From NCBI GenBank assembly GCA_009885205.1, contig VFLE01000055.1, forward strand, positions 11,236 through 75,235: a stretch of DNA of 64,000 nt, in the 5' to 3' direction. The notes below the pieces were generated by a model. That model was not told where the DNA came from. It saw nothing but the letters and a program-made list of their open reading frames with translations, and did not search any database. The stretch's first letter is position 1. The number at the start of each line of letters is the position of its first letter. This document shows positions 36,251 through 60,251 of the stretch, piece by piece. Made by a program: the position numbers and the translations under genes. Origin of the DNA: Candidatus Shapirobacteria bacterium. GTDB taxonomy: Bacteria > Patescibacteriota > Microgenomatia > UBA12405.

Positions 36251-37147
36251 TTAAAAATCGAATTCTTTAGTAATTTTTTGGGTCTTTTTATCAACATCAA
36301 ACCAATTAAAAGTGGCGGTATGGTCATCTTTAATTTCATAAACATGAATCACCCATGCAGATTTGTCGTCTGTATCGTGGTCATACTCAATAATAGTATT
36401 TGGAACTGTTTTTCGATAATTTATGACTTCAGGAAGTTGAGAAACTAAATACATTGCTGTTTGTTGATATGCAAGTTCAGCCATGTCAATGAATTTAAAG
36501 GTGGAGAGGATTTGGTTAAAATCAGACTGAAGTAAAGTTTCTGCAGGATATTTGGCAATCGTAATAATATTATTTTTATAAAACAAATAATAGGTGATGC
36601 CTGTACCATTCCCCTGCCATTCTAAATATTTTGCTGGATAACCTCCAATAGTTAGACCATTTGTTGAGATAACTTTCCCTCCAATTCCTGAAGGATCGTC
36701 TTCTATACTCTTTAGTTGTTTGGCAAAATATTCTTCTAAAGTCTGATTGGCTGTATTTGGACTAACCCATATTTCAACTTTTAATTCATTGCCTTGCATT
36801 GAATAGCCTTTACGATTAGTTAAATCAACTGGACTCATAAGTGAAAGATATAATGTTTCACTGTTATTTGTAGGAGAATTTTCAGTTAGAGAATAATTTT
36901 TAGGATAATCAAAATTAAATCCAAAATCTGTATTTATATATTTGCCGTTATAATTTACGATTGGTAATGGAGTTGTAATTGCGGTTGTTTGGGATAAATC
37001 TACAACTGGATTGGTTATTGGGGTAATAGTTGAAATTTCAGTAGTTTTTACTGATTGGCGGCCGAGGAGAAAAACTCCGGTGAGAAATAAGACAAAAGCG
37101 AGGGAGATTATAATTAAATTTAAATAATTTGTTTTTGGTTTGTCCAT
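36251..37147 (-). CDS. Membrane-anchored hypothetical protein, paralog 1 (signal-anchor + extracytoplasmic domains)
   Basis: The start is taken as MDKPKTNYLN (37147), which aligns with paralog 2 MDKPKPNYLN. The track ORF begins at an upstream TTG. One N-terminal TM helix is followed by an ILSTFKF motif. Confidence 0.6.
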   Translation of the reverse strand: MDKPKTNYLNLIIISLAFVLFLTGVFLLGRQSVKTTEISTITPITNPVVDLSQTTAITTPLPIVNYNGKYINTDFGFNFDYPKNYSLTENSPTNNSETLYLSLMSPVDLTNRKGYSMQGNELKVEIWVSPNTANQTLEEYFAKQLKSIEDDPSGIGGKVISTNGLTIGGYPAKYLEWQGNGTGITYYLFYKNNIITIAKYPAETLLQSDFNQILSTFKFIDMAELAYQQTAMYLVSQLPEVINYRKTVPNTIIEYDHDTDDKSAWVIHVYEIKDDHTATFNWFDVDKKTQKITKEFDF

Positions 37148-37188
37148 ATTAAAAGAGTAACATTTTTTGAAGGACAATAGGTCAAATT

Positions 37189-38181
37189 TTAGGGATTGAC
37201 CACTGTTTTTTGAAGAGTCTCAGGATTGATTGAATACAGATTTGTAATATTTTGGTCGTAAGGAATTTCTTTAACATTAAGTTGATTTGTTTTTGACCAA
37301 TTTAAACAATATGAAGATTGAATTCCAGAAAGTAATGTTTTACGTTGCTGTAGGTCAAAAATGGTGTAACCCCAGTAACCGGAAGTGCCGTATTCTATAC
37401 ACGCAAATTTTTTATTTGGTGAAAATATCAATTGACCTGGATAATCAACTGGCTTTTTGTCAAAGATATATTTTTTGTTGTTAAAAATAAAATATGCAGA
37501 GTAATCTTTGACGTCAATTTGGAGTTCCTTGCTATTTGGTAAATTAATTAAATTTACTATATTTTCGGTGAATTTAAAGGTAGAGAGGATTTCCTGATAT
37601 ATATTAATATCATTAGAATTTATGACACCTTCTTTTGGTTGAAGTGTTAAAACGTAGATATTGTTACCGTTCTTAAAATATGTAGAAAATACCGAAAAAC
37701 CAGCAGCATTATAGTTTTCTTGACGTTGAATACAATTTAATCCAGCTATGACAGTTTTTTTGGTTGAAATAACAGCAATTGAGGATGTACCTTCATATTC
37801 AGTTGAGTTTTGTTTATCTTTTTTTGACAAATACTCCGAAATTGTTTTTGAATTGTCTTCTGTAATATCGATAAGAAAGATCGATTGATTTGGTGAAGAA
37901 ATATACACATAATTTCCAGTTTCTAAAAGAGCTTCTTTGTTTGCATTCCAACTTGATGGATAATCAAAGGAAAAAATATTTTTACTGTCAGTATATGTTT
38001 TCCAATTTTGGATTGGATCAGTGACACTGGTTGGTATTGCCGTTGTTTGGGGTAAAACGGTGATGGGGTTGGGAATGGTTTTTACTGACTGACGGCCGAG
38101 GTAGAAGACACTGACAATAAATAAAACAAAAGCAAGGGAGATTAAAATTATATTTAGATAATTTGGTTTGGGTTTGTCCAT
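37189..38181 (-). CDS. Membrane-anchored hypothetical protein, paralog 2
   Basis: 330 aa. N-terminus MDKPKPNYLNIILISLAFVLFIVSVFYLGRQSVKT is about 80% nt-identical to paralog 1. It shares the EILSTFKF motif. Confidence 0.6.
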   Translation of the reverse strand: MDKPKPNYLNIILISLAFVLFIVSVFYLGRQSVKTIPNPITVLPQTTAIPTSVTDPIQNWKTYTDSKNIFSFDYPSSWNANKEALLETGNYVYISSPNQSIFLIDITEDNSKTISEYLSKKDKQNSTEYEGTSSIAVISTKKTVIAGLNCIQRQENYNAAGFSVFSTYFKNGNNIYVLTLQPKEGVINSNDINIYQEILSTFKFTENIVNLINLPNSKELQIDVKDYSAYFIFNNKKYIFDKKPVDYPGQLIFSPNKKFACIEYGTSGYWGYTIFDLQQRKTLLSGIQSSYCLNWSKTNQLNVKEIPYDQNITNLYSINPETLQKTVVNP

Positions 38182-38196
38182 ATAAAAAGAATAGCA

Positions 38197-38993
38197 CTAA
38201 TTTATTGATCTTTTGGTTTTAATATTTAAATAATTTTTTGAGGAAATGACGGATTTTGGGGATTTGGATTCGATTTCGGTGCGGGCGACTTTGGCAACAT
38301 GACCGCCATCATTGGCGTCTGTTTTTAAGTTTGAAAATGTTTTAGAGTCTCTATCCTTGGTAAATTTGGTGGTGGAAGCTTCACCAAGCATGGTTAAAAT
38401 TAATTCGATATCATCCATGTGGTCACGTAAATTTTCGCGTTTTAGACGGGGACAAAACCGCTTTTCATTATTTCATTGGTTAATATGGCAAAATCAATAT
38501 TGCGTTTGACTCCCCTATTTTTCCATTCATCAGTTAAGGTATGACGAACAGCAATACCCCGAGCCTGTTTGTCAATCCAATCTTGAGGATAACCTTTCTT
38601 TTCGTAAATAGCTTTCATCCTGTCCATGGCCAATTCGGGATTTTCGATTTCTTGAATTCGCTCATGTCCAACTAAAGCTAGCCATTGTTTGAATGGTTCG
38701 GCTTTGGGTGAAGGAATTGTTTGAATTATACGGAGTAAAGTTTTAGTATCGGCACAATCGGATAATCGTTTTCTACCATCAGATGCGATTAATTTTAATC
38801 GTACGATATTCTCGTACACTTGGCTGAACCCTTCTTTGTTTAGTTTTATTTTTAAGTCACTCCAATATCGTTTTGGGATGTTGCTGTCGGATAATATTGA
38901 GATCACATCAATAACAGAAAACCACCAGTCATTTTTGAAATAAATTTTTCGAACTTGTTTTCCTTCAAACAAAGCGATTTTGTTTGATTCCAT
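38197..38993 (-). pseudogene. BRO-N / DinD (RhuM-like) family gene interrupted by a frameshift
   Basis: The 183-aa ORF (38442..38993: FEGKQVRKIYFKNDWWFSVIDVISIL ...) stops at TNEIMKSGFVPV*. The downstream frame reads ...KRENLRDHMDDIELILTMLGEASTTKF... (38197..38418+). The frame switches in an A-run near 38461-38470. Confidence 0.55.
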
Positions 38994-39050
38994 AGCTAAT
39001 ATTACCGAAGTAATACCGAAGTGTCAATAGAACAAAATAGGTCAGACTTA

Positions 39051-39971
39051 TTACAGAAATTTGAACGAGGAAATTACAAAGTCATCGTCGCCTTCCAGGG
39101 TAACGATATATTTTTTGTCGGGAGAAATCGTTGTTTTAATATCACCAAAAGAATGAACGACAGTGTTGTCGTAAACGGAAATGGTGGTGACTGATTCACC
39201 ACTGGTACAGGATTCTTGTTTAAAGGGAATCTTGTTACCGTTGACCGAGGTCGCTTCGACGACATATTTGGCAGTAGTAGGACATTCAAATTGGTAGCCA
39301 TATTTGATATCCTTGTATGTTTTGCCAACAGTTTTTACCGTAGGTTCGGGAGTAACACAGGCTTTTTCGGTACAGGCAATTGTTAAGTTAGGGGTGCACG
39401 AACAAGTGTTGCAAGAATCGGTTGAGGGGAATGACTCACCAACAATATATTTTTTGTCATTGAGTTCACAAAACTGGGAAATTATTTTGGTGGGGGTGGG
39501 CCCCGCCGTTGCGGGATTGACAGAAGTGGGTGCTGGCTCTGATTGATTTGAAAAAAGATTATAAATTATGGCAGAGACGACAACCATAAATAAGGTCAGA
39601 GAAAAATAAAAAAGGTATTTGAAAAAATTTGAGGGTTTATCTTGAATTGGTTCTGATGGAAAATAAATTGGGGGGACTACTGGTTCTTCTTTAACAATGG
39701 GTTCTGAGACAATGGCTTTTTCAATGACCTTTGGAGGGATAATTTTGGGTGAATCTGTTGATATTAATGACTCAGGTTTTGAGACTTCAAATATAGGGTT
39801 TGGTTCTGATGCGACAGGAACAATTTCTGGTTCTAAATTAACTTTGGTTATAACGGGATTTACAACAAGGGGAACAACTTCTTTGTTTTCGACTGGTGGA
39901 GTGAGTGAGGAGGCATATTTGTTTAAAATTTCTTGATATTGTTGTTGCAGTTGATCATCATTATTGGGCAT
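39051..39971 (-). CDS. Membrane protein with a Pro-rich cytoplasmic N-region, one TM helix and a Cys-rich extracytoplasmic domain ending ISSFKFL
   Basis: 306 aa with at least 10 Cys in the C-terminal domain. The C-terminal S[ST]FKF motif is shared with paralogs 1 and 2. Confidence 0.5.
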   Translation of the reverse strand: MPNNDDQLQQQYQEILNKYASSLTPPVENKEVVPLVVNPVITKVNLEPEIVPVASEPNPIFEVSKPESLISTDSPKIIPPKVIEKAIVSEPIVKEEPVVPPIYFPSEPIQDKPSNFFKYLFYFSLTLFMVVVSAIIYNLFSNQSEPAPTSVNPATAGPTPTKIISQFCELNDKKYIVGESFPSTDSCNTCSCTPNLTIACTEKACVTPEPTVKTVGKTYKDIKYGYQFECPTTAKYVVEATSVNGNKIPFKQESCTSGESVTTISVYDNTVVHSFGDIKTTISPDKKYIVTLEGDDDFVISSFKFL

Positions 39972-51134: not shown

Positions 51135-52553
51135 CTAGTATGAAAGACCAAACAACCATCGGTGGGAGGAAGGTTTGCCACAGCGGACGCACTTGCCGTT
51201 TTCTTCAGGAGCGTCGAGAGGGAGACAGCGAGTAGTGGCCTTGGTGTCGGTTTTAATTTGGGCCTCACAATCAGCATTTTCACACCAGTGGGCGGAAATA
51301 AAACCACGACTAGTTTCCATTATTTTTTTAAATTCGTCGTAAGTGTCGGCTTTAAAAGTATGGTCTTGGGTAAACTTTTTGTGTTTGTCAAAAAGTTTTT
51401 GCTGAATATCTTTTAATAGCGCATCAACGGTTGTTGATATGTCAGCTATAGGAACAGTAATTTTTTCACTAGTATCACGACGAGAAATAATGACGGTGCC
51501 CGAGGCAACATCACGATCACCAATTTCTATTCGTAGAGGAATTCCTTTTAGTTCCCATTTATTGAATTTGACACCTGCAGTCTCCCCTTCTTTGTCGTCA
51601 AGTTTAATGCGATAACTTTCTAAATTTTTTAGTAGTTCTTTTGATTTTTCTAATGCAGTAGTGTGCCCAGGAATAGGAACAATTACTATTTGGATTGGGG
51701 CTATATTTGGAGGAATAACTAACCCCTTTTCGTCACCATGAGACATAATTAAGCCGCCAATTGAGCGAGTAGAAAATCCCCAAGAGTTTTGCCATGGCAT
51801 ACTCTTTTCTCCTATTTGGTCTTGGACCGTCCAGTCAATCGATTTGGAAAAATTTTGACCAAGATCGTGGCTAGTACAGGCTTGGAGCGACTTGCCATTG
51901 GGCATTAAAGCCTCAAAAGTGTAGGATTTAAAACCACCGGCAAATTTCTCGGAATCACTCTTGGCACCAATAATGCCATAAACACCCATTAATTCATTGT
52001 ATGTTTGCTCATACATTTTGATGGCCCACATAACTTCTTGCATACTTTCTTCGTGGGTCAGGTGTGCACAATGCCCCTCTTGCCACAAAAATTCTGAGGT
52101 ACGTAAAAACAAATAGGTGCGTTTTTCCCAGCGAACGACATTGCACCATTGATTCATACGAACTGGTAAGTCGCGCCACGATCCAAACCATTTTTTGTAC
52201 ATTTCGTACATCATCATTTCTGATGTAGGACGGACGGCTAATTTATCGACCAACTCTTTGCCACCACCAACGGTGACCACGGCGAGCTCTGGAGCAAAAC
52301 CTTCGACATGTTCTTTTTCTTTTTCAAAATAGGACATAGGGATAAATAAAGGAAAATAGGCATTTTCCACATCATGCTTCTTGATCAAAACATCCATGAA
52401 TTTTTGGATATTTTCCCAAAGAGCATAACCATAGGGTCGGATGACCATACAACCTTTGACAGGGGCATAGTCGGCCAGCTCGGCTTTTAACACCACCTCA
52501 TTAAACCATTCGGATAAGTTTGTTTTGAAATCAGGAAGTTGATTTTGAGCCAT
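51135..52553 (-). CDS. proS: Prolyl-tRNA synthetase, archaeal/eukaryotic-type
   Basis: Class-II motifs (FLRTSEFLWQEGH) and a C-terminal Zn-binding tail CVRCGKPSSHRWLFGLSY. The start is set at the internal ATG (MAQNQ). The track ORF starts at an upstream TTG. Confidence 0.85.
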   Translation of the reverse strand: MAQNQLPDFKTNLSEWFNEVVLKAELADYAPVKGCMVIRPYGYALWENIQKFMDVLIKKHDVENAYFPLFIPMSYFEKEKEHVEGFAPELAVVTVGGGKELVDKLAVRPTSEMMMYEMYKKWFGSWRDLPVRMNQWCNVVRWEKRTYLFLRTSEFLWQEGHCAHLTHEESMQEVMWAIKMYEQTYNELMGVYGIIGAKSDSEKFAGGFKSYTFEALMPNGKSLQACTSHDLGQNFSKSIDWTVQDQIGEKSMPWQNSWGFSTRSIGGLIMSHGDEKGLVIPPNIAPIQIVIVPIPGHTTALEKSKELLKNLESYRIKLDDKEGETAGVKFNKWELKGIPLRIEIGDRDVASGTVIISRRDTSEKITVPIADISTTVDALLKDIQQKLFDKHKKFTQDHTFKADTYDEFKKIMETSRGFISAHWCENADCEAQIKTDTKATTRCLPLDAPEENGKCVRCGKPSSHRWLFGLSY

Positions 52554-52727
52554 ACAAAATAATAGCAAATTTACAGGGACGAATGCATCGTGGTACCACC
52601 CTTTTTTAATCTCTTTTGAATTTACAGTTCAGTTCTGGAGCTACTTTCGTAGTCACCTCCACGGCGGGACACCGTTTCATAGGTTTTGAGAATTATATCA
52701 GATTTTTTATCGTGGTATAAATAATAA

Positions 52728-53101: not shown

Positions 53102-54871
53102 TTAAACTTCCATCACCAATGGCAAGACCATAGGTTGGCGGCCGGTCTTTTCGAGAATTATTCCTTCAATATGAGCCTGTAATTCTTGTCTAATAAATTC
53201 AAAATTAGCAGGTTTAGAAGTTGCCTCGGTAAATTTGCGATTTATTTCGGCCATTAAAAAGTCCATAAGATCGGCATTTTCTTTTTCAAAAACAAAGCCC
53301 CTCGATAAAATTACTGGAGGTTTGGCTAAGATACCAGTTTCTTTAGTTACCAACAAAACAAAGGAGAACATCCCTTCTTCGGCCAATAATTTGCGATCGC
53401 GCAAAACAGTAGTACCAACATCACCAATTCCCAAACCATCAATTAATACTTTGCGAAGCTGATTGTGCTGTTTGGTATCGACCTTACCATCGGCAAAAAA
53501 AGTGATAATAGCATCGGTATCGGGTGAAATTAATTGTTCGTCTTTGTACCCCATAGTTTTGGCCATGGTGTGGTAACTTTTGACGTGACGGAAATTACCT
53601 CCAATTGGGACTAAATATTTGGGACGGACTAAATCCATCAAAATAGCGTGTTCTTTTTGAAAACCGTGACCAGAGACGTGAATTTCTTGACTGTCACCAT
53701 AAATTACTTCGGCACCCATACGAGCCAGAGTGTCAATCAAATCATAAATATGGGAAGTAGTGCCAGGAATATAATCGGGGGCAGAAAAAATAACTTTGTC
53801 ACCTGATTTTATTTTAATCCTATGTTTTCCCATAACCATTTTACTTAAAGCAGAATTAGGTTGAGCGGAAAAACCAGCAACTAAAAATATTAGCTTATTA
53901 TCGGCAAAATTTTTGGTTCGTTCAACGGGCACTAAATCATCATCAGTTAAGTTAACATAGCCAAGTTCTTTGGCAATGGCAATAGCTTTGTCAACCGAAT
54001 AACCGACGGGGACAATTTTTCGACCAGCGCGTTTGGCATAATCGATGGCTTGACCCCAACGAACGACGTTACTGGAAATTGAAGTCACAAAAACCCGACC
54101 CTTTGATGTAATAATATCGCGGTTGAATTTTTCGGCAATAGAACTCTCGGAAGGTGAAAAACCTTCGTGATCAGCACCAAGACAATCAGACATTAGAGCC
54201 ACAACTTTCTTTTCACCAACGCGGGCGATGTGAGCCAAATCGGAAGGTTTGCCGTCTAAGGGAAATAAATCAAATTTAAAATCAGAACCATGGTAAAAAA
54301 TACCGATGGGAGTGGTAATAGCAAAATGATTGGTGTCAGGAACAGAATGGTTGACCTTAATGGTATCAATAGTAAATGGACCGGCGGTCATAACATCACC
54401 ACTTTCGTAGATTTTCATGTTGCTACGAATTGAGGCTTCGACTAAACGATTATCAATAAAGGCAGCGGCCATTCGAGGGGCAAAAAGTGGGATATTTGGA
54501 CCAAGAACAGGGAGAATAAAACGAAGAGCACCGATATGGTCTTCGTGACCGTGGGTGATAAAAATACCCAAAATTCGGTCTTTTTTGTCTTCCAAATATT
54601 TAGTATCAGGAATTTGGAGATCAACTCCAAACTCGTCTTCTTCGGGGAAACCAACACCGCAGTCGACAATGATTATCTGACTTTTGGCCAGGTCGCCATT
54701 GGGGACATATTCATAGACGAACATGTTTTGGGTAACATCACCAAAGCCACCAAGGGCAATGAGACGAACCGAATCACGGCTACCGCCAAGATTTTGGACA
54801 GGGAGAGTTTTGGAAAAATTAACAGGAGGACGGTTTACCGGACGAGCCGGTGAGAAATTTTTATTTATCAT
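53102..54871 (-). CDS. rnj: Ribonuclease J (metallo-beta-lactamase / beta-CASP)
   Basis: 589 aa. ITHGHEDHIGAL motif plus beta-CASP and C-terminal domains. Confidence 0.85.
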   Translation of the reverse strand: MINKNFSPARPVNRPPVNFSKTLPVQNLGGSRDSVRLIALGGFGDVTQNMFVYEYVPNGDLAKSQIIIVDCGVGFPEEDEFGVDLQIPDTKYLEDKKDRILGIFITHGHEDHIGALRFILPVLGPNIPLFAPRMAAAFIDNRLVEASIRSNMKIYESGDVMTAGPFTIDTIKVNHSVPDTNHFAITTPIGIFYHGSDFKFDLFPLDGKPSDLAHIARVGEKKVVALMSDCLGADHEGFSPSESSIAEKFNRDIITSKGRVFVTSISSNVVRWGQAIDYAKRAGRKIVPVGYSVDKAIAIAKELGYVNLTDDDLVPVERTKNFADNKLIFLVAGFSAQPNSALSKMVMGKHRIKIKSGDKVIFSAPDYIPGTTSHIYDLIDTLARMGAEVIYGDSQEIHVSGHGFQKEHAILMDLVRPKYLVPIGGNFRHVKSYHTMAKTMGYKDEQLISPDTDAIITFFADGKVDTKQHNQLRKVLIDGLGIGDVGTTVLRDRKLLAEEGMFSFVLLVTKETGILAKPPVILSRGFVFEKENADLMDFLMAEINRKFTEATSKPANFEFIRQELQAHIEGIILEKTGRQPMVLPLVMEV

Positions 54872-54994: not shown

Positions 54995-56068
54995 TTACCA
55001 CTGTGGCATATATTTTTTGACGTTACTATCGTCAATAACAATTTTGGGTGTGCCGGATAAAATTAGGGCGGCGGTTTTGCGACAGAGGCCTTCGATGTTG
55101 CGCTTTAGAGTACGGACACCGGCGTCAAAACCAAGAGGACGAACAATGTTTGGCCAAATGTCATCGTTAATTATTAATTCGTCCTTAGTTATGGCTGAAT
55201 CTTTTAGTGCCCGGGGTAATAAATATTTTTTACCAATCATCATTTTTTCTTCGTCATTGTAACTAGGCATTTGGATAACTTCGAGACGATCCATAACGGC
55301 AGTAGCGATACGGGCAGTGTTGTTGCAAGTGGCGACAAAAAAAGCTTGGGACAAATTAAAAGGATAATCTAAATAATGATCGGAAAAGCGGTCGTTTTGC
55401 TCGGGGTCGAGTAGCTCGACTAGCACACCCATAATGGTATTGAGGGCATCGTCGGCGACACGGTCGATTTCATCTAAAAGTATGACGGGATTATTGGTTT
55501 TGGCAGTGGCCAGACCACGGATAATGGCGCCGGGTTCGGCTTCGGGGTGGAGACGACTTTGACCACGAAGATAAAGTGGGTCACCTAAACCGCCAAAAGG
55601 AATACGAATAAGTTGGCGACCAAGGACATCGGCAATGGACTTGGCCATGGTAGTTTTGCCAGTACCTACGAGCCCCACAAACAACAAAATTGGAGCCCGA
55701 AAAGGCTCGTCGGGGTGACGAGTTTTTTGCAAAGCCAGAATGGAAACGTATTCTTCGATTCTTTGTTTAACTTCGTCGAGGCCATAATGATTTTCGTCGA
55801 GTTTTTGGCGAGTGTGGGAAATGTCAAGAATGTCGTCACTTTTGGTAAACCAAGGCAATTTAATAACCCAATCGAGATATTTATTGGCTGATTGATAAAA
55901 AGCCCAAAAAGTATCTTCGGATTTTGAGTTTACTTCTAACTGGGCAAATAACTCGTTTAAAGATTCGACCAGACCATCGGGTAATTTGACACTCTTGGAT
56001 TTGGTCCGCAATTTTTCAATGGCACTAACGATGGTCAAATTTTCTTCGGGCATATAAAAAGTATACAC
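54995..56068 (-). CDS. Lon-like AAA+ ATPase without the S16 protease domain and with a truncated N-domain
   Basis: 357 aa. It aligns with the Lon AAA+ module from ...YLDWVIKLPW...HYGLDEVKQRIEEY through Walker A GLVGTGKTT, Walker B ILLDEID, sensor-2 and AGVRTLKRNIEGLCRK. It then stops, with no Ser-Lys protease domain. Confidence 0.7.
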   Translation of the reverse strand: MYTFYMPEENLTIVSAIEKLRTKSKSVKLPDGLVESLNELFAQLEVNSKSEDTFWAFYQSANKYLDWVIKLPWFTKSDDILDISHTRQKLDENHYGLDEVKQRIEEYVSILALQKTRHPDEPFRAPILLFVGLVGTGKTTMAKSIADVLGRQLIRIPFGGLGDPLYLRGQSRLHPEAEPGAIIRGLATAKTNNPVILLDEIDRVADDALNTIMGVLVELLDPEQNDRFSDHYLDYPFNLSQAFFVATCNNTARIATAVMDRLEVIQMPSYNDEEKMMIGKKYLLPRALKDSAITKDELIINDDIWPNIVRPLGFDAGVRTLKRNIEGLCRKTAALILSGTPKIVIDDSNVKKYMPQW

Positions 56069-56145
56069 GAAAAAACACTATTATTTATGAGACCAATGTG
56101 TGGTGGAATTCTTGTTTTACTACAACGTGATTTGTCGATTATTGT

Positions 56146-56226
56146 GTAGAGACGCACCATGGTGCGTCTCTACAGGGATGCGAATATGCCTAATATTGGG
56201 GAATAAACGCAGCGAAACAATCATTG
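56146..56226. repeat. Composite repeat: family-A palindrome (core caccatggtg) + 21-nt linker + conserved 32-nt tail (copy 3 of 3)
   Basis: Perfect palindrome at 56146-56173, then attggggaataaacgcagcgaaacaatcattg. It lies between pnp and the lon-like gene. Confidence 0.85.
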
Positions 56227-56232
56227 AATATT

Positions 56233-56260
56233 GTAGGAACATGCCGCGGCATGTTCCTAC
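56233..56260. repeat. REP-like palindrome, family B (GTAGGAAC-atgccgcggcat-GTTCCTAC)
   Basis: 28-bp perfect inverted repeat, 7 nt after the composite repeat and 17 nt before the pnp stop. Confidence 0.9.
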
Positions 56261-56276
56261 GTAAAGAAATTACGAA

Positions 56277-58496
56277 TTATCTTCGAGGTCTCGAGTCGTT
56301 TTGGGCGAAGTTACGGAAACCGCCGGAACGAGGTCGGTCACTACCACGATTATCAAACTGAGGACGGGGTGGCCCCGCCTTCGCAAAGCCTTCGTCGGGC
56401 GAAGCAGGATGAGCGGTTTTAAACTCGGGGGCTGATAATTTTATTTGATGATTATCATTGTAACCACTGATTTGGACTTTAATTTTGTCACCAACTTTGA
56501 TAATAGCTGAGGGGTCAGATAGGAAGCCTTGGGTCATTTCCGAGACGTGAAGTAGAGCTTCACGACCGGGTAAAAATTCGACAAAGGCACCAAAATTTTC
56601 AACACGAGTTACTTCTCCTTCAAACTCTTCGCCCATTTGGACTTCGCGAACCATGGATTCAATTTGAAAAGCACAAGCGTCAATTTGAACCTGATCTAGG
56701 GAAGAAATTGAAGCACGACCAAAATCATCAATATCAATTTGGGTGCCAAATTTTTCCATTAAGGCTTTAATGGTTTTGCCACCAGAGCCAATCACTTCTC
56801 CGATTTTGTCTTCGGGTAAGGTAATCATTTTTATTTTAGGGGCATAAGCTGACAATTCTTTGCGTGGTGCGATTAATACCGATTCCATTTTGGTAATAAT
56901 TTGGAGACGAGCGGCTAAACTTTGGGCAAAAGTATCCTTAATCATGGCAAAAGATAGACCCATGCGTTTGATATCAAGTTGAATGGCGGTAATACCCGTT
57001 TTGGTACCAGTAATTTTGAAATCCATGTCACCACAGTGATCTTCGATTCCGGCAATATCGGTTAATAAAATATATTTACCTGCATCATCGGAAACCATAC
57101 CGACAGAAATACCGGCCACATGAGCCTTGAGGGGAACACCAGCGGCCATTAAAGACATGGTTGAACCACAGGTCGAGGCCATAGAAGATGATCCATTTTG
57201 AGATAGCACTTCGGAAGTTAAGATAATAGTATAAGGAAATTCCTCGACAGTAGGAATGACGGCAACTAAGGCTTTTTCGGCTAGGGCTCCGTGACCAATT
57301 TCACGGCGACCAGGACGACCAGTGCGTCCAGTTTGACCGGTGGAAAAAGGTGCGGCGGAATAATAATGAATATAACGTTTGGTAGTTTCACCACTGCTAT
57401 CTTGTAAATGTTGTTCTTCAGATAAAGGACCTAAAGTAGTAATAGTTAAGGCTTGGGTTAATCCCCTTTCAAATAAGGCGGAACCATGGGTACAAGGTAA
57501 GACATCAAGCTCTATATTTAGGGGACGAATTTCGGTCGTGGCTCGTTTGTCATAACGTTTGCCGGCCAGAGTTGTGGCACGAATATATTTACGAACAACA
57601 TTGTCGACGGCTTCCATTAATTTGGCCTTGTCTACTTCACCCGATTCTAATTGTGTCGCAAATTTTTCGATAGCAGTTTCTTTTATTTTTTCTTCACCGG
57701 CCATATGGGCACCATCAACACCGGCAGAAATAAAATCCTCAAGTTCTTTTTTAACGGCTGCTTCGACTTTATCTTGCAATTCAATTGAAGGCGAAAGATC
57801 GGTGTATTCCATTTTTGGTTTGCCAAATTCTGTGGCAAATTCCATAAGTTTTGCATTTATTTCATCACCAGTTTTAATACCTAATTCGATAGCTTTGAGA
57901 ACAATATCATTATCAACAATTTTGACATCGGCCTCAATCATGTTGACACCCTCAGAATCTTTACAAATTAAAAGATCCATATCGGAAGTTAATTGGTCGG
58001 TAATGGTGGGAAATAATGAAATTTCACCTGATTTTAGGCCTAAACGAACGGCCGAAACGGGACCTGAAAACGGTAAACCTGAAATCATGAGGGCAGCAGA
58101 AACGGCAGTAAAGGCAGTGACAACCACATCATTGTCGCGGTCATTACTTAAAACCGTGGCCATAACTTGGACTTCGTTTTTGAAACCCATAGGAAATAGA
58201 GGGCGGATAGATCGGTCGATAATTCGGCCAAATAAAACAGCGGTGTCACTGGGACCACCATCGCGTTTCATCCATTTGCCACCTTTGATAACACCACCAG
58301 CATAAAATTTGTCAACAAATTCGACAGAAAGTGGAAAATAATCTTTGGATAAATCCAAATTGCCTTTGACAACGGTGGCCAAAACCACAGTTTTGCCCAT
58401 TTGAGCCAGCACGGCACCACTGGCCTGTGGGGCTAATTTGCCGGTTGATAGGGTTATAACTTTACCACCGAGTGAGATATCCATAGATTTTTGCAT
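56277..58496 (-). CDS. pnp: Polyribonucleotide nucleotidyltransferase (PNPase)
   Basis: 739 aa. Two RNase PH domains, KH and S1 domains, and a basic C-terminal tail. Confidence 0.95.
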   Translation of the reverse strand: MQKSMDISLGGKVITLSTGKLAPQASGAVLAQMGKTVVLATVVKGNLDLSKDYFPLSVEFVDKFYAGGVIKGGKWMKRDGGPSDTAVLFGRIIDRSIRPLFPMGFKNEVQVMATVLSNDRDNDVVVTAFTAVSAALMISGLPFSGPVSAVRLGLKSGEISLFPTITDQLTSDMDLLICKDSEGVNMIEADVKIVDNDIVLKAIELGIKTGDEINAKLMEFATEFGKPKMEYTDLSPSIELQDKVEAAVKKELEDFISAGVDGAHMAGEEKIKETAIEKFATQLESGEVDKAKLMEAVDNVVRKYIRATTLAGKRYDKRATTEIRPLNIELDVLPCTHGSALFERGLTQALTITTLGPLSEEQHLQDSSGETTKRYIHYYSAAPFSTGQTGRTGRPGRREIGHGALAEKALVAVIPTVEEFPYTIILTSEVLSQNGSSSMASTCGSTMSLMAAGVPLKAHVAGISVGMVSDDAGKYILLTDIAGIEDHCGDMDFKITGTKTGITAIQLDIKRMGLSFAMIKDTFAQSLAARLQIITKMESVLIAPRKELSAYAPKIKMITLPEDKIGEVIGSGGKTIKALMEKFGTQIDIDDFGRASISSLDQVQIDACAFQIESMVREVQMGEEFEGEVTRVENFGAFVEFLPGREALLHVSEMTQGFLSDPSAIIKVGDKIKVQISGYNDNHQIKLSAPEFKTAHPASPDEGFAKAGPPRPQFDNRGSDRPRSGGFRNFAQNDSRPRR

Positions 58497-58520: not shown

Positions 58521-58790
58521 TTACTTTTTGAGGTTAAGAGATTTGATCAATTTACCATAGCGTTCTTCATTGTTGAGGGAGAGATAGCGAAGCAAACGAC
58601 GACGTTTGGCAATTTTGGACAATAGTCCACGTTTTGCCGGAGAATCGTGTTTGTTGTCACCGAGGTGACCTTGGAGTTTGTCGATTTCTTTGGATAAAAT
58701 AGCAACTTGAATTTCAGGAGATCCAGTATCACCCTTGGCTTGGGCGAATTTGGTAACGACTGATGTTTTTTCGTCTTTGGTTAATGCCAT
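58521..58790 (-). CDS. rpsO: 30S ribosomal protein S15
   Basis: 89 aa. GDTGSPEIQVAILSKEIDKLQGHL... Confidence 0.9.
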   Translation of the reverse strand: MALTKDEKTSVVTKFAQAKGDTGSPEIQVAILSKEIDKLQGHLGDNKHDSPAKRGLLSKIAKRRRLLRYLSLNNEERYGKLIKSLNLKK

Positions 58791-58867
58791 GTGTTTAATG
58801 GTGCTAATTTTAGTAAAAATTAAAATTCCAGAATGGCTACTGAAAAACTAAAATAAGTACAGTTGAT

Positions 58868-59438: not shown

Positions 59439-60251
59439 TTAGACAGTGGGATTAAAGGTTGGATTTGGTGTGAACTGAGGGGTGGTGGTAGGTGTTGAAG
59501 CTGGGATGTCAGCAATGGGGTTAACCTCTGGAGTTACGGGAGTAGTAGTTGGAGTTTCGGGCTGGGTGGCACGGAGACAGAGGGCACCGGCTTCAAAAGA
59601 TTCGGGGGAAACATTAACAGAGAATGATTGGGTAGCAACCCGAAGACCAATTAAAATGTCTTTGCCGGAGTCTTGGTCTAAGGTTAATCCTAACATAGGC
59701 AATAAGAAGGTAAATATTTCAGAAAAGGGAGCATCGGGGTCGATTAAACTAGCTTTAGCCCAAGATTTGGGAGTATTGGTGGGTGAAATATAAATCCAAT
59801 TGCCCGAGTTAACCATAGAGGCTTTGTCACCTAAAGGCATTTCATCACCTAACATAAAACAAATATCGGCAGAACCAGAGCTATTGTTAATTGAAATTTG
59901 ATTTTGATCAATTTTAGTCGCTCCTGTTTTGGTTTTGACAACCAAATTTAGTTTGCCACCATCATCGTTGTAGGAAACCTGATCAATTTGATCCAAAGGA
60001 TAGGAGACAGTAATAACCAAATCGGCAGGATTATAGGAATCAGTAATCAATTCAAGTCCACTTAATTTGGAATAATTTTGATCGGGTTTTTGGAGTGACA
60101 AAACTTGGGCGGTTTTACCAGCTTTTTTTAAAGCTAGGGCTAAACCTAAAGCTGAACCAATTGAATCAACTGACATGGTAGGAACCACGATTAGGGCAGA
60201 TTTGGCGGTATCTAAAAGAGATTTAATTTCGGTGACGTTGTAGTTTTTCAT
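59439..60251 (-). CDS. DHH-family (NrnA-like) protein with degenerate DHH motifs and a Pro/Thr-rich C-terminal tail
   Basis: 270 aa. IVVPTMSVDSIGSALGLALAL aligns to the DHH motif I/II region but lacks Asp and His. It sits downstream of infB, where rbfA-nrnA or rbfA-truB usually lie. Confidence 0.45.
   Translation of the reverse strand: MKNYNVTEIKSLLDTAKSALIVVPTMSVDSIGSALGLALALKKAGKTAQVLSLQKPDQNYSKLSGLELITDSYNPADLVITVSYPLDQIDQVSYNDDGGKLNLVVKTKTGATKIDQNQISINNSSGSADICFMLGDEMPLGDKASMVNSGNWIYISPTNTPKSWAKASLIDPDAPFSEIFTFLLPMLGLTLDQDSGKDILIGLRVATQSFSVNVSPESFEAGALCLRATQPETPTTTPVTPEVNPIADIPASTPTTTPQFTPNPTFNPTV

Follow-up and report, generated by a model that had tools for sequence, protein, structure and literature searches.

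What remains of a Lon protease when its gene ends where the protease domain should begin, and can the remainder still be a working protein? This question is raised by a gene on the minus strand of a 64,000-nt stretch of a Candidatus Shapirobacteria contig (GenBank assembly GCA_009885205.1, contig VFLE01000055.1, positions 11,236 to 75,235 of the forward strand), the whole of which is here called the window. The gene, referred to as the Lon-AAA gene, lies between pnp, coding for polynucleotide phosphorylase (PNPase), and rnj, coding for RNase J. Its product consists of the three-helix bundle of LonA followed by a complete AAA+ module, without the N-domain of Lon and without its S16 protease domain. 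Since no peptidase is attached to it, the protein is unable to cut or degrade protein by itself. The gene is selectively maintained, and we put at about even the chance that its product is a stand-alone protein remodeller, derived from LonA, that forms rings and is driven by ATP. In the following, a protease-less Lon-AAA protein is termed a short form, and a Lon with the protease domain is termed full-length or canonical.

A Lon ATPase core without a protease domain

In Pfam the protein matched AAA (PF00004, residues 128-266, E 9e-17) and Lon_lid (PF22667, residues 290-340, E 7e-9) and nothing else, with no match in it to LON_substr_bdg (PF02190) or Lon_C (PF05362) even at E <= 0.1. The NCBIfam model of endopeptidase La, TIGR00763, aligned residues 16-339 of the protein with profile positions 254-567 of 795 at a score of 305.4 bits, which is about half of the cut-off of 608 and does not reach the equivalog threshold. 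The score against NF008053 (225.5) was likewise below its cut-off of 891. When the sequences of the PDB were searched, solved Lon structures were always matched over the segment from ~245 to ~580, as for B. subtilis Lon (3M6A, E 1e-69), Meiothermus Lon (244-577) and E. coli Lon (288-578). A tblastn comparison of the AAA part of E. coli Lon with all six frames of the window gave a sole match, at 55007-56050 (E 6e-66, 36% identity), and the protein ends at a point equivalent to Lon position ~584. These results agree with the initial annotation of this locus, in which a 357-aa open reading frame (ORF) had been described as colinear with the Lon ATPase core and as ending where the S16 domain should begin.

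Neither the N-domain (1-245) nor the P-domain (585-784) of E. coli Lon found a counterpart in the whole 64-kb window by tblastn (best E > 1), and two further Lon P-domains gave no match there either. The stop codon of the Lon-AAA gene is followed after 123 nt by the start of rnj (54871), just as had been annotated, and there is no S16 similarity in any frame of the window, so the gene is not one part of a split or frameshifted lon. The protein had also been said to have almost no N-domain. This was accurate, and the piece that remains could be defined as the three-helix bundle known in Lon as NTD3H, which aligns with Lon residues ~247-305 and is the sole remnant of the Lon N-terminal region. 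An AlphaFold2 model of the monomer, based on an alignment of 82 sequences, had a mean predicted local distance difference test score (pLDDT) of 91.8 and a predicted template modelling score (pTM) of 0.86. Using Foldseek against the PDB, the top matches of this model were all Lon chains (LONP1, Yersinia, Meiothermus, Thermus and E. coli), with query-normalised TM-scores of 0.84-0.87 over the full length of the protein, to the NTD3H and AAA+ part of Lon.

The ORF list of the window holds the gene as 54995..56068 on the minus strand, giving 357 aa from a GTG codon. Since the N-termini of most homologues, the equivalent Met of a 94%-identical orthologue from a Shapirobacteria metagenome-assembled genome (MAG; locus L002) and independent gene calls of 352 aa all agree on the ATG at 56053, this is almost certainly the true start, yielding a protein of 352 aa. 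The GTG at 56068 would add five residues and is probably not used. Among the ATPase models of the defence-system collection PADLOC, DolB (7e-9), IetA (4e-6) and TRIP13 (3e-5) were matched as generic AAA proteins only; a defence-system ATPase was dropped as a candidate since these matches are weak and generic and the neighbours of the gene are housekeeping genes.

Retained ATPase residues and remodelled pore loops

The status of individual residues was read from an alignment of 264 protease-less proteins, made up of the close family (n=121) and other short forms (n=143), together with 100 full-length Lons. In the alignable sequences the Walker A Lys, the Walker B Asp, the Arg finger (R484 in Lon) and the sensor-2 Arg (R542) are present in 264/264 short forms, and the Walker B Glu and the sensor-1 Asn (N473) each in 263 of the 264. 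The bridging Glu (E447) is found in 121/121 close-family members and in 133/143 of the other short forms, Y456 of the pre-sensor-1 hairpin is Tyr or Phe in all short forms, and Y294 and W297 of the three-helix bundle (Lon numbering) are conserved. In Lon, the Arg finger, the bridging Glu and the Tyr of the pre-sensor-1 hairpin couple hydrolysis to the movement of the pore loops, and the roles of the Arg finger, the bridging Glu, Y456 and Y398/I399 have been described for the Yersinia and E. coli enzymes (PMC7239648). Since an invariant trans-acting Arg finger is meaningful only between subunits, we infer that the short forms would assemble into rings. The initial annotation had all ATPase motifs intact; this stands for the residues of nucleotide binding and hydrolysis, but not for the pore loops that contact the substrate, which are remodelled.

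In full-length Lon, pore loop 1 reads R-R-T-Y-[IV]-G-[AS]-[ML]-P-G, with Tyr in 88/100, whereas the window protein has S-R-L-H-P-E-A-E-P-G and is missing the aromatic-hydrophobic-Gly of Y398-I399-G400. In the alignments Tyr398-Ile399 of Lon corresponds to His-Pro, Gly400 to Glu and Met402 to Glu. A role in gripping the substrate has been assigned to Y398/I399 (PMC7239648) and to Tyr397 in Meiothermus Lon (PMC8503904). Within the close family the Tyr position is occupied by His in 86 members and by Tyr in 35 (n=121), with Pro next to it. In the wider clade it is Phe or Tyr in ~55%, against an aromatic in ~95% of full-length Lon, and otherwise Glu, Arg, Gln or Asn, followed by Leu, Pro or Val. 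From a few sequences it had appeared that the pore-loop aromatic was lost clade-wide; this was overturned by the larger alignment, in which the aromatic is relaxed. The changes of Gly400 to Asp/Glu and of Met402 to Glu are signatures across the whole short-form clade, and R395, one of the tandem arginines of Lon, is Ser in 94% of short forms.

Pore loop 2 of the close family is two residues shorter than the Lon segment KMSSD[MFW]RGDPAS and has lost both the aromatic/hydrophobic residue and the Gly-Asp-Pro, and what remains of it is nearly invariant within that family. The role of Trp431 in pore loop 2 of Meiothermus Lon has been described (PMC8503904). Few segments of the close family are as constrained as the pore-facing loops, which fits a function at the axial channel. 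The Walker A motif, canonically GPPGVGKT, is GL[VQ]G in short forms, the replacement of Pro-Pro by Leu-Val/Gln being a clade signature. The lid motif W300..R305-P-L-G-F-D-A-G-V-R314, for which Lon has I..YYTREAGVR, is clade-specific as well, and in this segment before sensor-2 (W..RPLG[FY]DAGVR) the Trp, Pro, Gly and Asp are 98-100% conserved. The linker Gly580 of Lon is Pro in short forms. At the C-terminus, the tail has the form [FY][ILM]PQW, with P-Q-W invariant in 121/121 close homologues; other subclades carry other tails, FVLPDQGPLS in the Dojkabacteria type, and [FY]-[LIMV]-P-x-[WY] is found in most short-form metagenome loci. The pore Met of the bundle, M284 of Lon, is tentatively assigned to a conserved Phe/Tyr of the short forms, there being a 6-residue indel at this point.

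A short-form clade and its genomic neighbourhood

Conservation of the truncated form in relatives, to which the initial annotation had pointed, could be established: more than 250 homologues have the same architecture and belong to one clade of Lon. All of the 120 top-ranking relatives in the databases are 348-374 aa long and 69-93% identical to the window protein, and where a source is named it belongs to the Shapirobacteria, Woesebacteria, Microgenomates or Patescibacteria. An exhaustive search of cluster representatives added more distant protease-less forms of 348-669 aa, 38-55% identical and all ending just past the lid, many of them with N-terminal extensions of low complexity. A profile search based on them added another 120 proteins, 348-545 aa in length and all without Lon_C, with named matches from Dojkabacteria, Microgenomates, Gottesmanbacteria and Shapirobacteria. 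When a neighbour-joining tree was built from the AAA+ region with 100 full-length Lons included, 73 of the 76 sampled short forms grouped in a single clade free of other sequences. A separate sample, drawn from metagenomes, was divided just as cleanly: 12/12 short loci (349-382 aa) had GL[VP]GxGKT together with x-A-E-P-G or a close variant, and 68/68 loci of canonical length had G[PA]PGxGKT, almost all of them with HRRTY[IV]G. The clade can thus be defined by a length of ~350 aa or more, an end at the AAA-protease linker, the lack of Lon_C and LON_N, and the signatures GL[VQP]GxGKT, x-A-E-P-G in pore loop 1 and W..RPxGxDxGxR in the lid; it is monophyletic within Lon, and the window protein fits the definition. 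As judged from their sequences, its members are evidently descendants of LonA, present in many of the ultra-small Patescibacteria, or candidate phyla radiation (CPR), that lack the N-terminal substrate-recognition and S16 peptidase domains.

Some members of the family are longer than others. P0142 (669 aa), P0131, P0138 and P0150 have N-terminal extensions of up to ~320 aa that are rich in Gln, Pro and Thr and presumably disordered, and P0159 and P0161 have low-complexity C-terminal extensions instead. In two Dojkabacteria loci (L082, 8001-10230; L084, 8001-10191) the short Lon-AAA protein has a low-complexity N-terminal extension of ~150 aa, and a gene for a membrane-anchored M23 peptidase lies 5-47 nt downstream, beside VirB4/TraG-like and PrgI-like type-IV-secretion genes. 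Several loci of Microgenomates-type synteny (L008, L011, L015, L016, L018, L020 and others) are filed under the titles 'uncultured Gammaproteobacteria bacterium' or 'Candidatus Methanoperedens sp.', which suggests that the bins behind these MAG records were mislabelled or contaminated. Among bins labelled as CPR, canonical Lon is represented by a full-length protein of 876 aa (L081) and by the split lon of OLB22. A search for S16 domains with a CPR-labelled Lon as query was weak, giving 677 candidates that were mostly fragments and one canonical split lon, again that of OLB22. In this Microgenomates-labelled MAG (LLEV01000005.1; L091, 6421-8831) a 501-aa gene with LON_N and AAA is followed after 74 nt by a 276-aa gene with the lid and Lon_C; the break may come from a frameshift or an error of assembly, or Lon may really be split here.

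The existence of that split canonical lon, and the fact that JGI and UniProt name such proteins 'Lon protease', might lead one to regard the Lon-AAA gene as a decaying fragment, a frameshifted lon or an artefact of assembly or gene calling, but the chance of this is negligible. The ratio of nonsynonymous to synonymous substitution rates (dN/dS) against the L002 orthologue is 0.038, an approximate value from a single comparison with dS (1.7) near saturation, and the neighbours gave 0.058 (pnp), 0.032 (rnj), 0.055 (infB) and 0.082 (nusA) against the same MAG. In a more distant locus (L057) the Lon-AAA protein is 50% identical, PNPase 42% and RNase J 36%, so that it is slower-changing than its neighbours. 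The selection on the gene is comparable to that on nusA, infB, pnp and rnj, and the gene is likely to be important for the cell. Decay, for which the initial annotation had named a raised dN/dS and broken motifs in relatives as the signs, is contradicted by this ratio and by the catalytic residues. A frameshifted, split or decaying lon is ruled out by these two findings together with the shared ends of the homologues and the S16-free window, in which rnj follows so closely on the stop codon. The OLB22 genes retain the canonical YTREAGVR and the LON_substr_bdg domain, unlike the short-form clade.

A protease-less Lon family in CPR bacteria was not found described in the literature, though many subscription-journal papers lay outside the coverage, and neither Pfam nor NCBIfam has a curated model specific to the short-form clade. 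The sequences of the family are public under generic or wrong names. JGI/IMG and some UniProt and NCBI records call these proteins 'ATP-dependent Lon protease', and other sources 'AAA family ATPase'. Since the label of a Lon protease is attached to proteins without a peptidase, reconstructions of metabolism and proteostasis in CPR bacteria may wrongly count Lon proteolysis as present.

The genes of the window, mostly core genes of housekeeping, follow one another in the order dnaJ, nusA, infB, a conserved gene of unknown function, rpsO, pnp, Lon-AAA, rnj, proS and ftsK, then a helix-turn-helix (HTH) gene and alaS, then a sortase gene, mltG and a MiaB-like gene, and finally rpoB, rpoC, fusA, tuf, the ribosomal-protein operons, secY, adk, rpsD, rpoA, uppP and the genes for pyruvate:ferredoxin oxidoreductase. 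The nearest relative is a Shapirobacteria MAG, in which the neighbouring proteins are 86-96% identical. Of the 62 related short-form loci whose upstream flank extends to 2.5 kb or more, 54 have pnp directly upstream on the same strand (median gap 72 nt), and rnj is downstream in 52 of 59 loci; overall, the gene is placed between the two in about 87% of loci. This arrangement is kept in members that are 41-54% identical to the window protein, in which RNase J identity is 36-39%, and the gaps to the neighbours are as small as 2-11 nt in some loci. By comparison, pnp or rnj was found within 6 kb of 0/68 canonical lon loci in the metagenome sample. The Dojkabacteria-type and some other members are located elsewhere, either by the membrane-anchored M23 and type-IV-secretion-like genes or after yidC-jag-rplY.

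The spacer between the pnp stop codon and the Lon-AAA gene in the window is 223 nt long and contains two hairpins, for which there was no Rfam match at E <= 1. The hairpins probably end or stabilise the pnp transcript, and the Lon-AAA gene may therefore have its own promoter in the window genome; alternatively, they may be a small repeat element. At the same junction L002 (8895-9989) has an ORF of 216 aa together with a gene for an HTH (XRE-like) protein of 92 aa. Since there are two extra genes in L002 where the window has its hairpins, the junction is a recurrent insertion site.

Several other features of the window were observed. Between infB and rpsO, in the slot of rbfA/truB in many bacteria, lies a gene (59439-60251, minus strand) for a 270-aa protein without a Pfam match, which is kept in nearly all related loci (26-90% identity). 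The C-terminus of this protein is rich in Pro and Thr, and its N-terminus is loosely DHH-phosphoesterase-like, without the Asp-His-His motif. A weak match to an S15 leader (58734-58850, E 0.06) is found upstream of rpsO, and a T-box-leader-like element upstream of proS (52572-52689, minus strand; Rfam RF00230, 45 bits, E 1e-7) falls short of the gathering score of 93. The proS gene itself (51135-52568, minus strand) codes for a prolyl-tRNA synthetase (ProRS) with a C-terminal ProRS-C_1 domain, which is typical of archaeal and eukaryote-like ProRS. The region 36251-39971 (minus strand), between rpoB and the MiaB-like radical-SAM gene, contains ORFs of 308 and 330 aa without a Pfam match, the gene of a protein with a Bro-N domain (38442-38993) and an ORF of 306 aa that weakly resembles pacifastin. 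An otherwise core region may here have received a small insertion of mobile or phage origin.

Table 1. Features of the Lon-AAA gene and its surroundings in the window (residues in the numbering of the 352-aa protein)
Feature	Position	Strand	Residues	Basis or remark
rnj (RNase J), downstream neighbour	53102..54871	-		Pfam Lactamase_B, RNase_J beta-CASP, RNase_J_C
Lon-AAA gene, coding sequence	54995..56053	-		352 aa from ATG 56053; stop codon 54995-54997
C-terminal tail Y-M-P-Q-W-COOH	54998..55012	-		matches Lon AAA-protease linker DYLGxxRF
AAA+ small alpha-helical lid subdomain	55019..55261	-	265-345	Pfam Lon_lid
Sensor-2 Arg314 (Lon R542)	55112-55114	-	314	inside lid subdomain
AAA+ large alpha/beta nucleotide-binding subdomain	55262..55822	-	~78-264	PF00004, AlphaFold2, Foldseek
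Trans-acting Arg finger Arg256 (Lon R484)	55286..55288	-	256	alignment
Sensor-1 Asn244 (Lon N473)	55322..55324	-	244	alignment
Pore-loop-2 region RVADDALNTIMG	55427..55462	-	198-209	alignments
Walker B LDEID	55463..55477	-	193-197	alignment
Pore loop 1 RGQSRLHPEAEPG	55529..55567	-	163-175	Lon counterpart RGHRRTYIGSMPG
Walker A GLVGTGKT	55652..55675	-	127-134	Lys/Thr invariant in 264 short forms
Three-helix bundle (Lon NTD3H)	55859..56035	-	7-65	AlphaFold2 helices 8-19, 26-44, 46-65
Hairpins in pnp/Lon-AAA spacer, perfect palindromes without loop spacer	56145-56174 (15-bp arms), 56233-56260 (14-bp arms)	-		inverted-repeat search
pnp (polynucleotide phosphorylase), upstream neighbour	56277..58496	-		Pfam RNase_PH x2, KH, S1

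Possible functions and the nearest known systems

For the ring-forming remodeller that we favour, we infer the oligomeric state, the ATPase activity, the nature of the clients and the remodelling role as follows. The conserved trans Arg finger and the inter-subunit Glu suggest that the protein would form a Lon-like ring, and the intact motifs suggest that it would bind and hydrolyse ATP. Client proteins would then be engaged in an axial channel with a re-tooled lining, in which a pore loop 1 of the form [H/Y/F]-[P/L]-[D/E]-A-E-P-G is combined with a shortened pore loop 2, and the outcome would be the unfolding or remodelling of restricted clients, not the work of a general quality-control protease. 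The re-tooled pore suggests a clientele that is narrower than that of Lon or different from it. Several points weigh against this proposal. The substrate-gripping Tyr398-Ile399 of Lon is His-Pro in the window protein, and the loss of Tyr-Ile/Val-Gly from the pore loop argues against a standard threading unfoldase of the Lon type. Processive threading of a polypeptide appears doubtful since the gripping residues are replaced and the aromatic is kept in only about half of the wider clade. Furthermore, the protease ring helps to stabilise the hexamer of Lon, the invariant C-terminal tail looks like an element for binding a partner, and the conserved position between pnp and rnj hints at another functional context.

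The short form could be the ATPase half of a two-component protease, docking, perhaps by this tail, on a separately encoded peptidase that is either an S16-only protein or an unrelated ring peptidase. HslU and the proteasomal ATPases dock by their C-terminal tails, the C-terminus is invariant throughout the close homologues, other subclades have conserved tails of their own, and the ATPase machinery is fully kept along with the three-helix bundle at the entrance of the pore. We nevertheless regard this arrangement as unlikely: S16 domains were found neither in the 64-kb window nor within 6-10 kb of any of ~77 related short-form loci, and ClpP, HslV, FtsH and Lon_C/S16 were not found among the 40 window ORFs scanned. 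The pore-loop Tyr of translocation is not conserved, and the tail varies by subclade, some members having low-complexity extensions in its place. The M23 peptidase of Dojkabacteria, the sole peptidase found adjacent to a short form, was considered as the missing protease and rejected, since both copies have an N-terminal hydrophobic membrane anchor, which places them outside the cytoplasm, and there is no homologue in the window. The conserved neighbourhood, for its part, raises the possibility that the ATPase works with PNPase and/or RNase J in RNA decay, in the remodelling of ribonucleoproteins or in the assembly or regulation of a degradosome-like complex. The high frequency of the pnp and rnj linkage, its persistence at low sequence identity with very short gaps and its lack at canonical lon loci all favour such a role, and the AAA+ alpha-subdomain of Lon binds nucleic acid. 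However, the whole block nusA-infB-X-rpsO-pnp-Lon-AAA-rnj-(proS)-ftsK, in which X is the conserved gene of unknown function, is syntenic, so that the linkage may be an inherited gene order, and the loci are phylogenetically non-independent. In various genomes a uracil-DNA glycosylase (UDG), a NUDIX, an HTH or the 216-aa gene is inserted on either side, two hairpins follow pnp in the window, the linkage is missing in the Dojkabacteria-type and other members, and the new residues of the pore loop are acidic, which is unfavourable for the binding of RNA. The link of pnp and rnj to function is therefore suggestive, not decisive, and a part in RNA decay seems to us improbable.

It is also conceivable, although we think it quite improbable, that the protein is a nucleotide switch that does not thread at all. 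It would bind and hydrolyse ATP to serve a specific partner as clamp, adaptor or regulator, without translocating polypeptide. The His-Pro of pore loop 1 and the relaxed aromatic across the clade, the disappearance of the aromatic and Gly-Asp-Pro from pore loop 2 and the frequent change of R395 to Ser would all be consistent with this. On the other hand, the pore loops are among the most conserved segments, an aromatic-hydrophobic pair is present in ~55% of the wider clade, and the Arg finger, bridging Glu and pre-sensor-1 hairpin Tyr are conserved. There is, finally, a small chance that the protease-less AAA+ ring with its acidic, re-tooled pore belongs to a new kind of machine, either a two-component protease of an unknown type that is completed through the tail, or an ATP-driven component of RNA decay by PNPase and RNase J. 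In that case the motor of Lon would have been turned to a new use in Microgenomatia, Dojkabacteria and related CPR lineages. To our knowledge, a Lon-derived ATPase in an RNA-decay complex of PNPase and RNase J has not been described.

The short forms are a natural experiment, in which the motor of Lon has long been kept without either the protease or the substrate-recognition domain, and in which the pore loops, the Pro-Pro of Walker A and the lid motif have changed together during protease-less evolution. Their function would reveal what a lone Lon ATPase ring is capable of and which residues are needed for a job other than degradation. The placement between the two main nucleases of RNA decay provides a testable lead for the reduced genomes of CPR bacteria.

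The nearest known systems are the LonA proteases (E. coli, B. subtilis, Meiothermus taiwanensis, Yersinia pestis and human LONP1), to which the protein is related via NTD3H and AAA+, with 36% identity to residues 248-579 of E. coli Lon. It shares with them the fold, Walker A and B, sensor-1, the Arg finger, sensor-2, the hairpin Tyr, the bridging Glu and the Tyr/Trp of the bundle. Unlike LonA, it has no N-terminal substrate-binding domain, no long coiled-coil helix and no S16 Ser-Lys peptidase, and it differs in pore loop 1 (H-P-E-A-E-P-G against Y-[IV]-G-[AS]-[ML]-P-G), in pore loop 2 (shortened and without an aromatic), in Walker A (GLVG against GPPG) and in the lid (W..RPLGFDAGVR against I..YYTREAGVR). 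A fragment of E. coli Lon, Lon(235-584), has near-identical boundaries, from the bundle and AAA+ to the protease linker (PDB 6N2I; match E 7e-63). This product of limited proteolysis formed an open helical hexamer with ADP in crystals (PMC6722904). It is, however, a laboratory fragment with canonical pore loops, whereas the window protein is the product of a natural gene that evolves independently, with remodelled loops and a conserved tail.

Lon, ClpX and HslU belong to the same HCLR clade of AAA+ proteins (PMC7239648). ClpX and HslU provide a precedent for ATPase rings to which no peptidase is covalently joined. The former pairs with ClpP, and the latter with HslV. Unlike these two, the protein has a sequence that is Lon-specific, models of the ClpA/ClpB type reaching E 5e-9 or worse against 1e-90 for Lon, and its alignment with Lon shows no large insertion that would be able to act as a docking loop of the IGF type. 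Within the Lon family, LonC has lost its ATPase activity and LonB carries a membrane anchor within the AAA+ module, and the protease domain is kept in both. The short form resembles LonB and LonC in being a natural variant of Lon with one module lost or degenerate, and represents the reverse case, having kept an intact ATPase and lost the protease.

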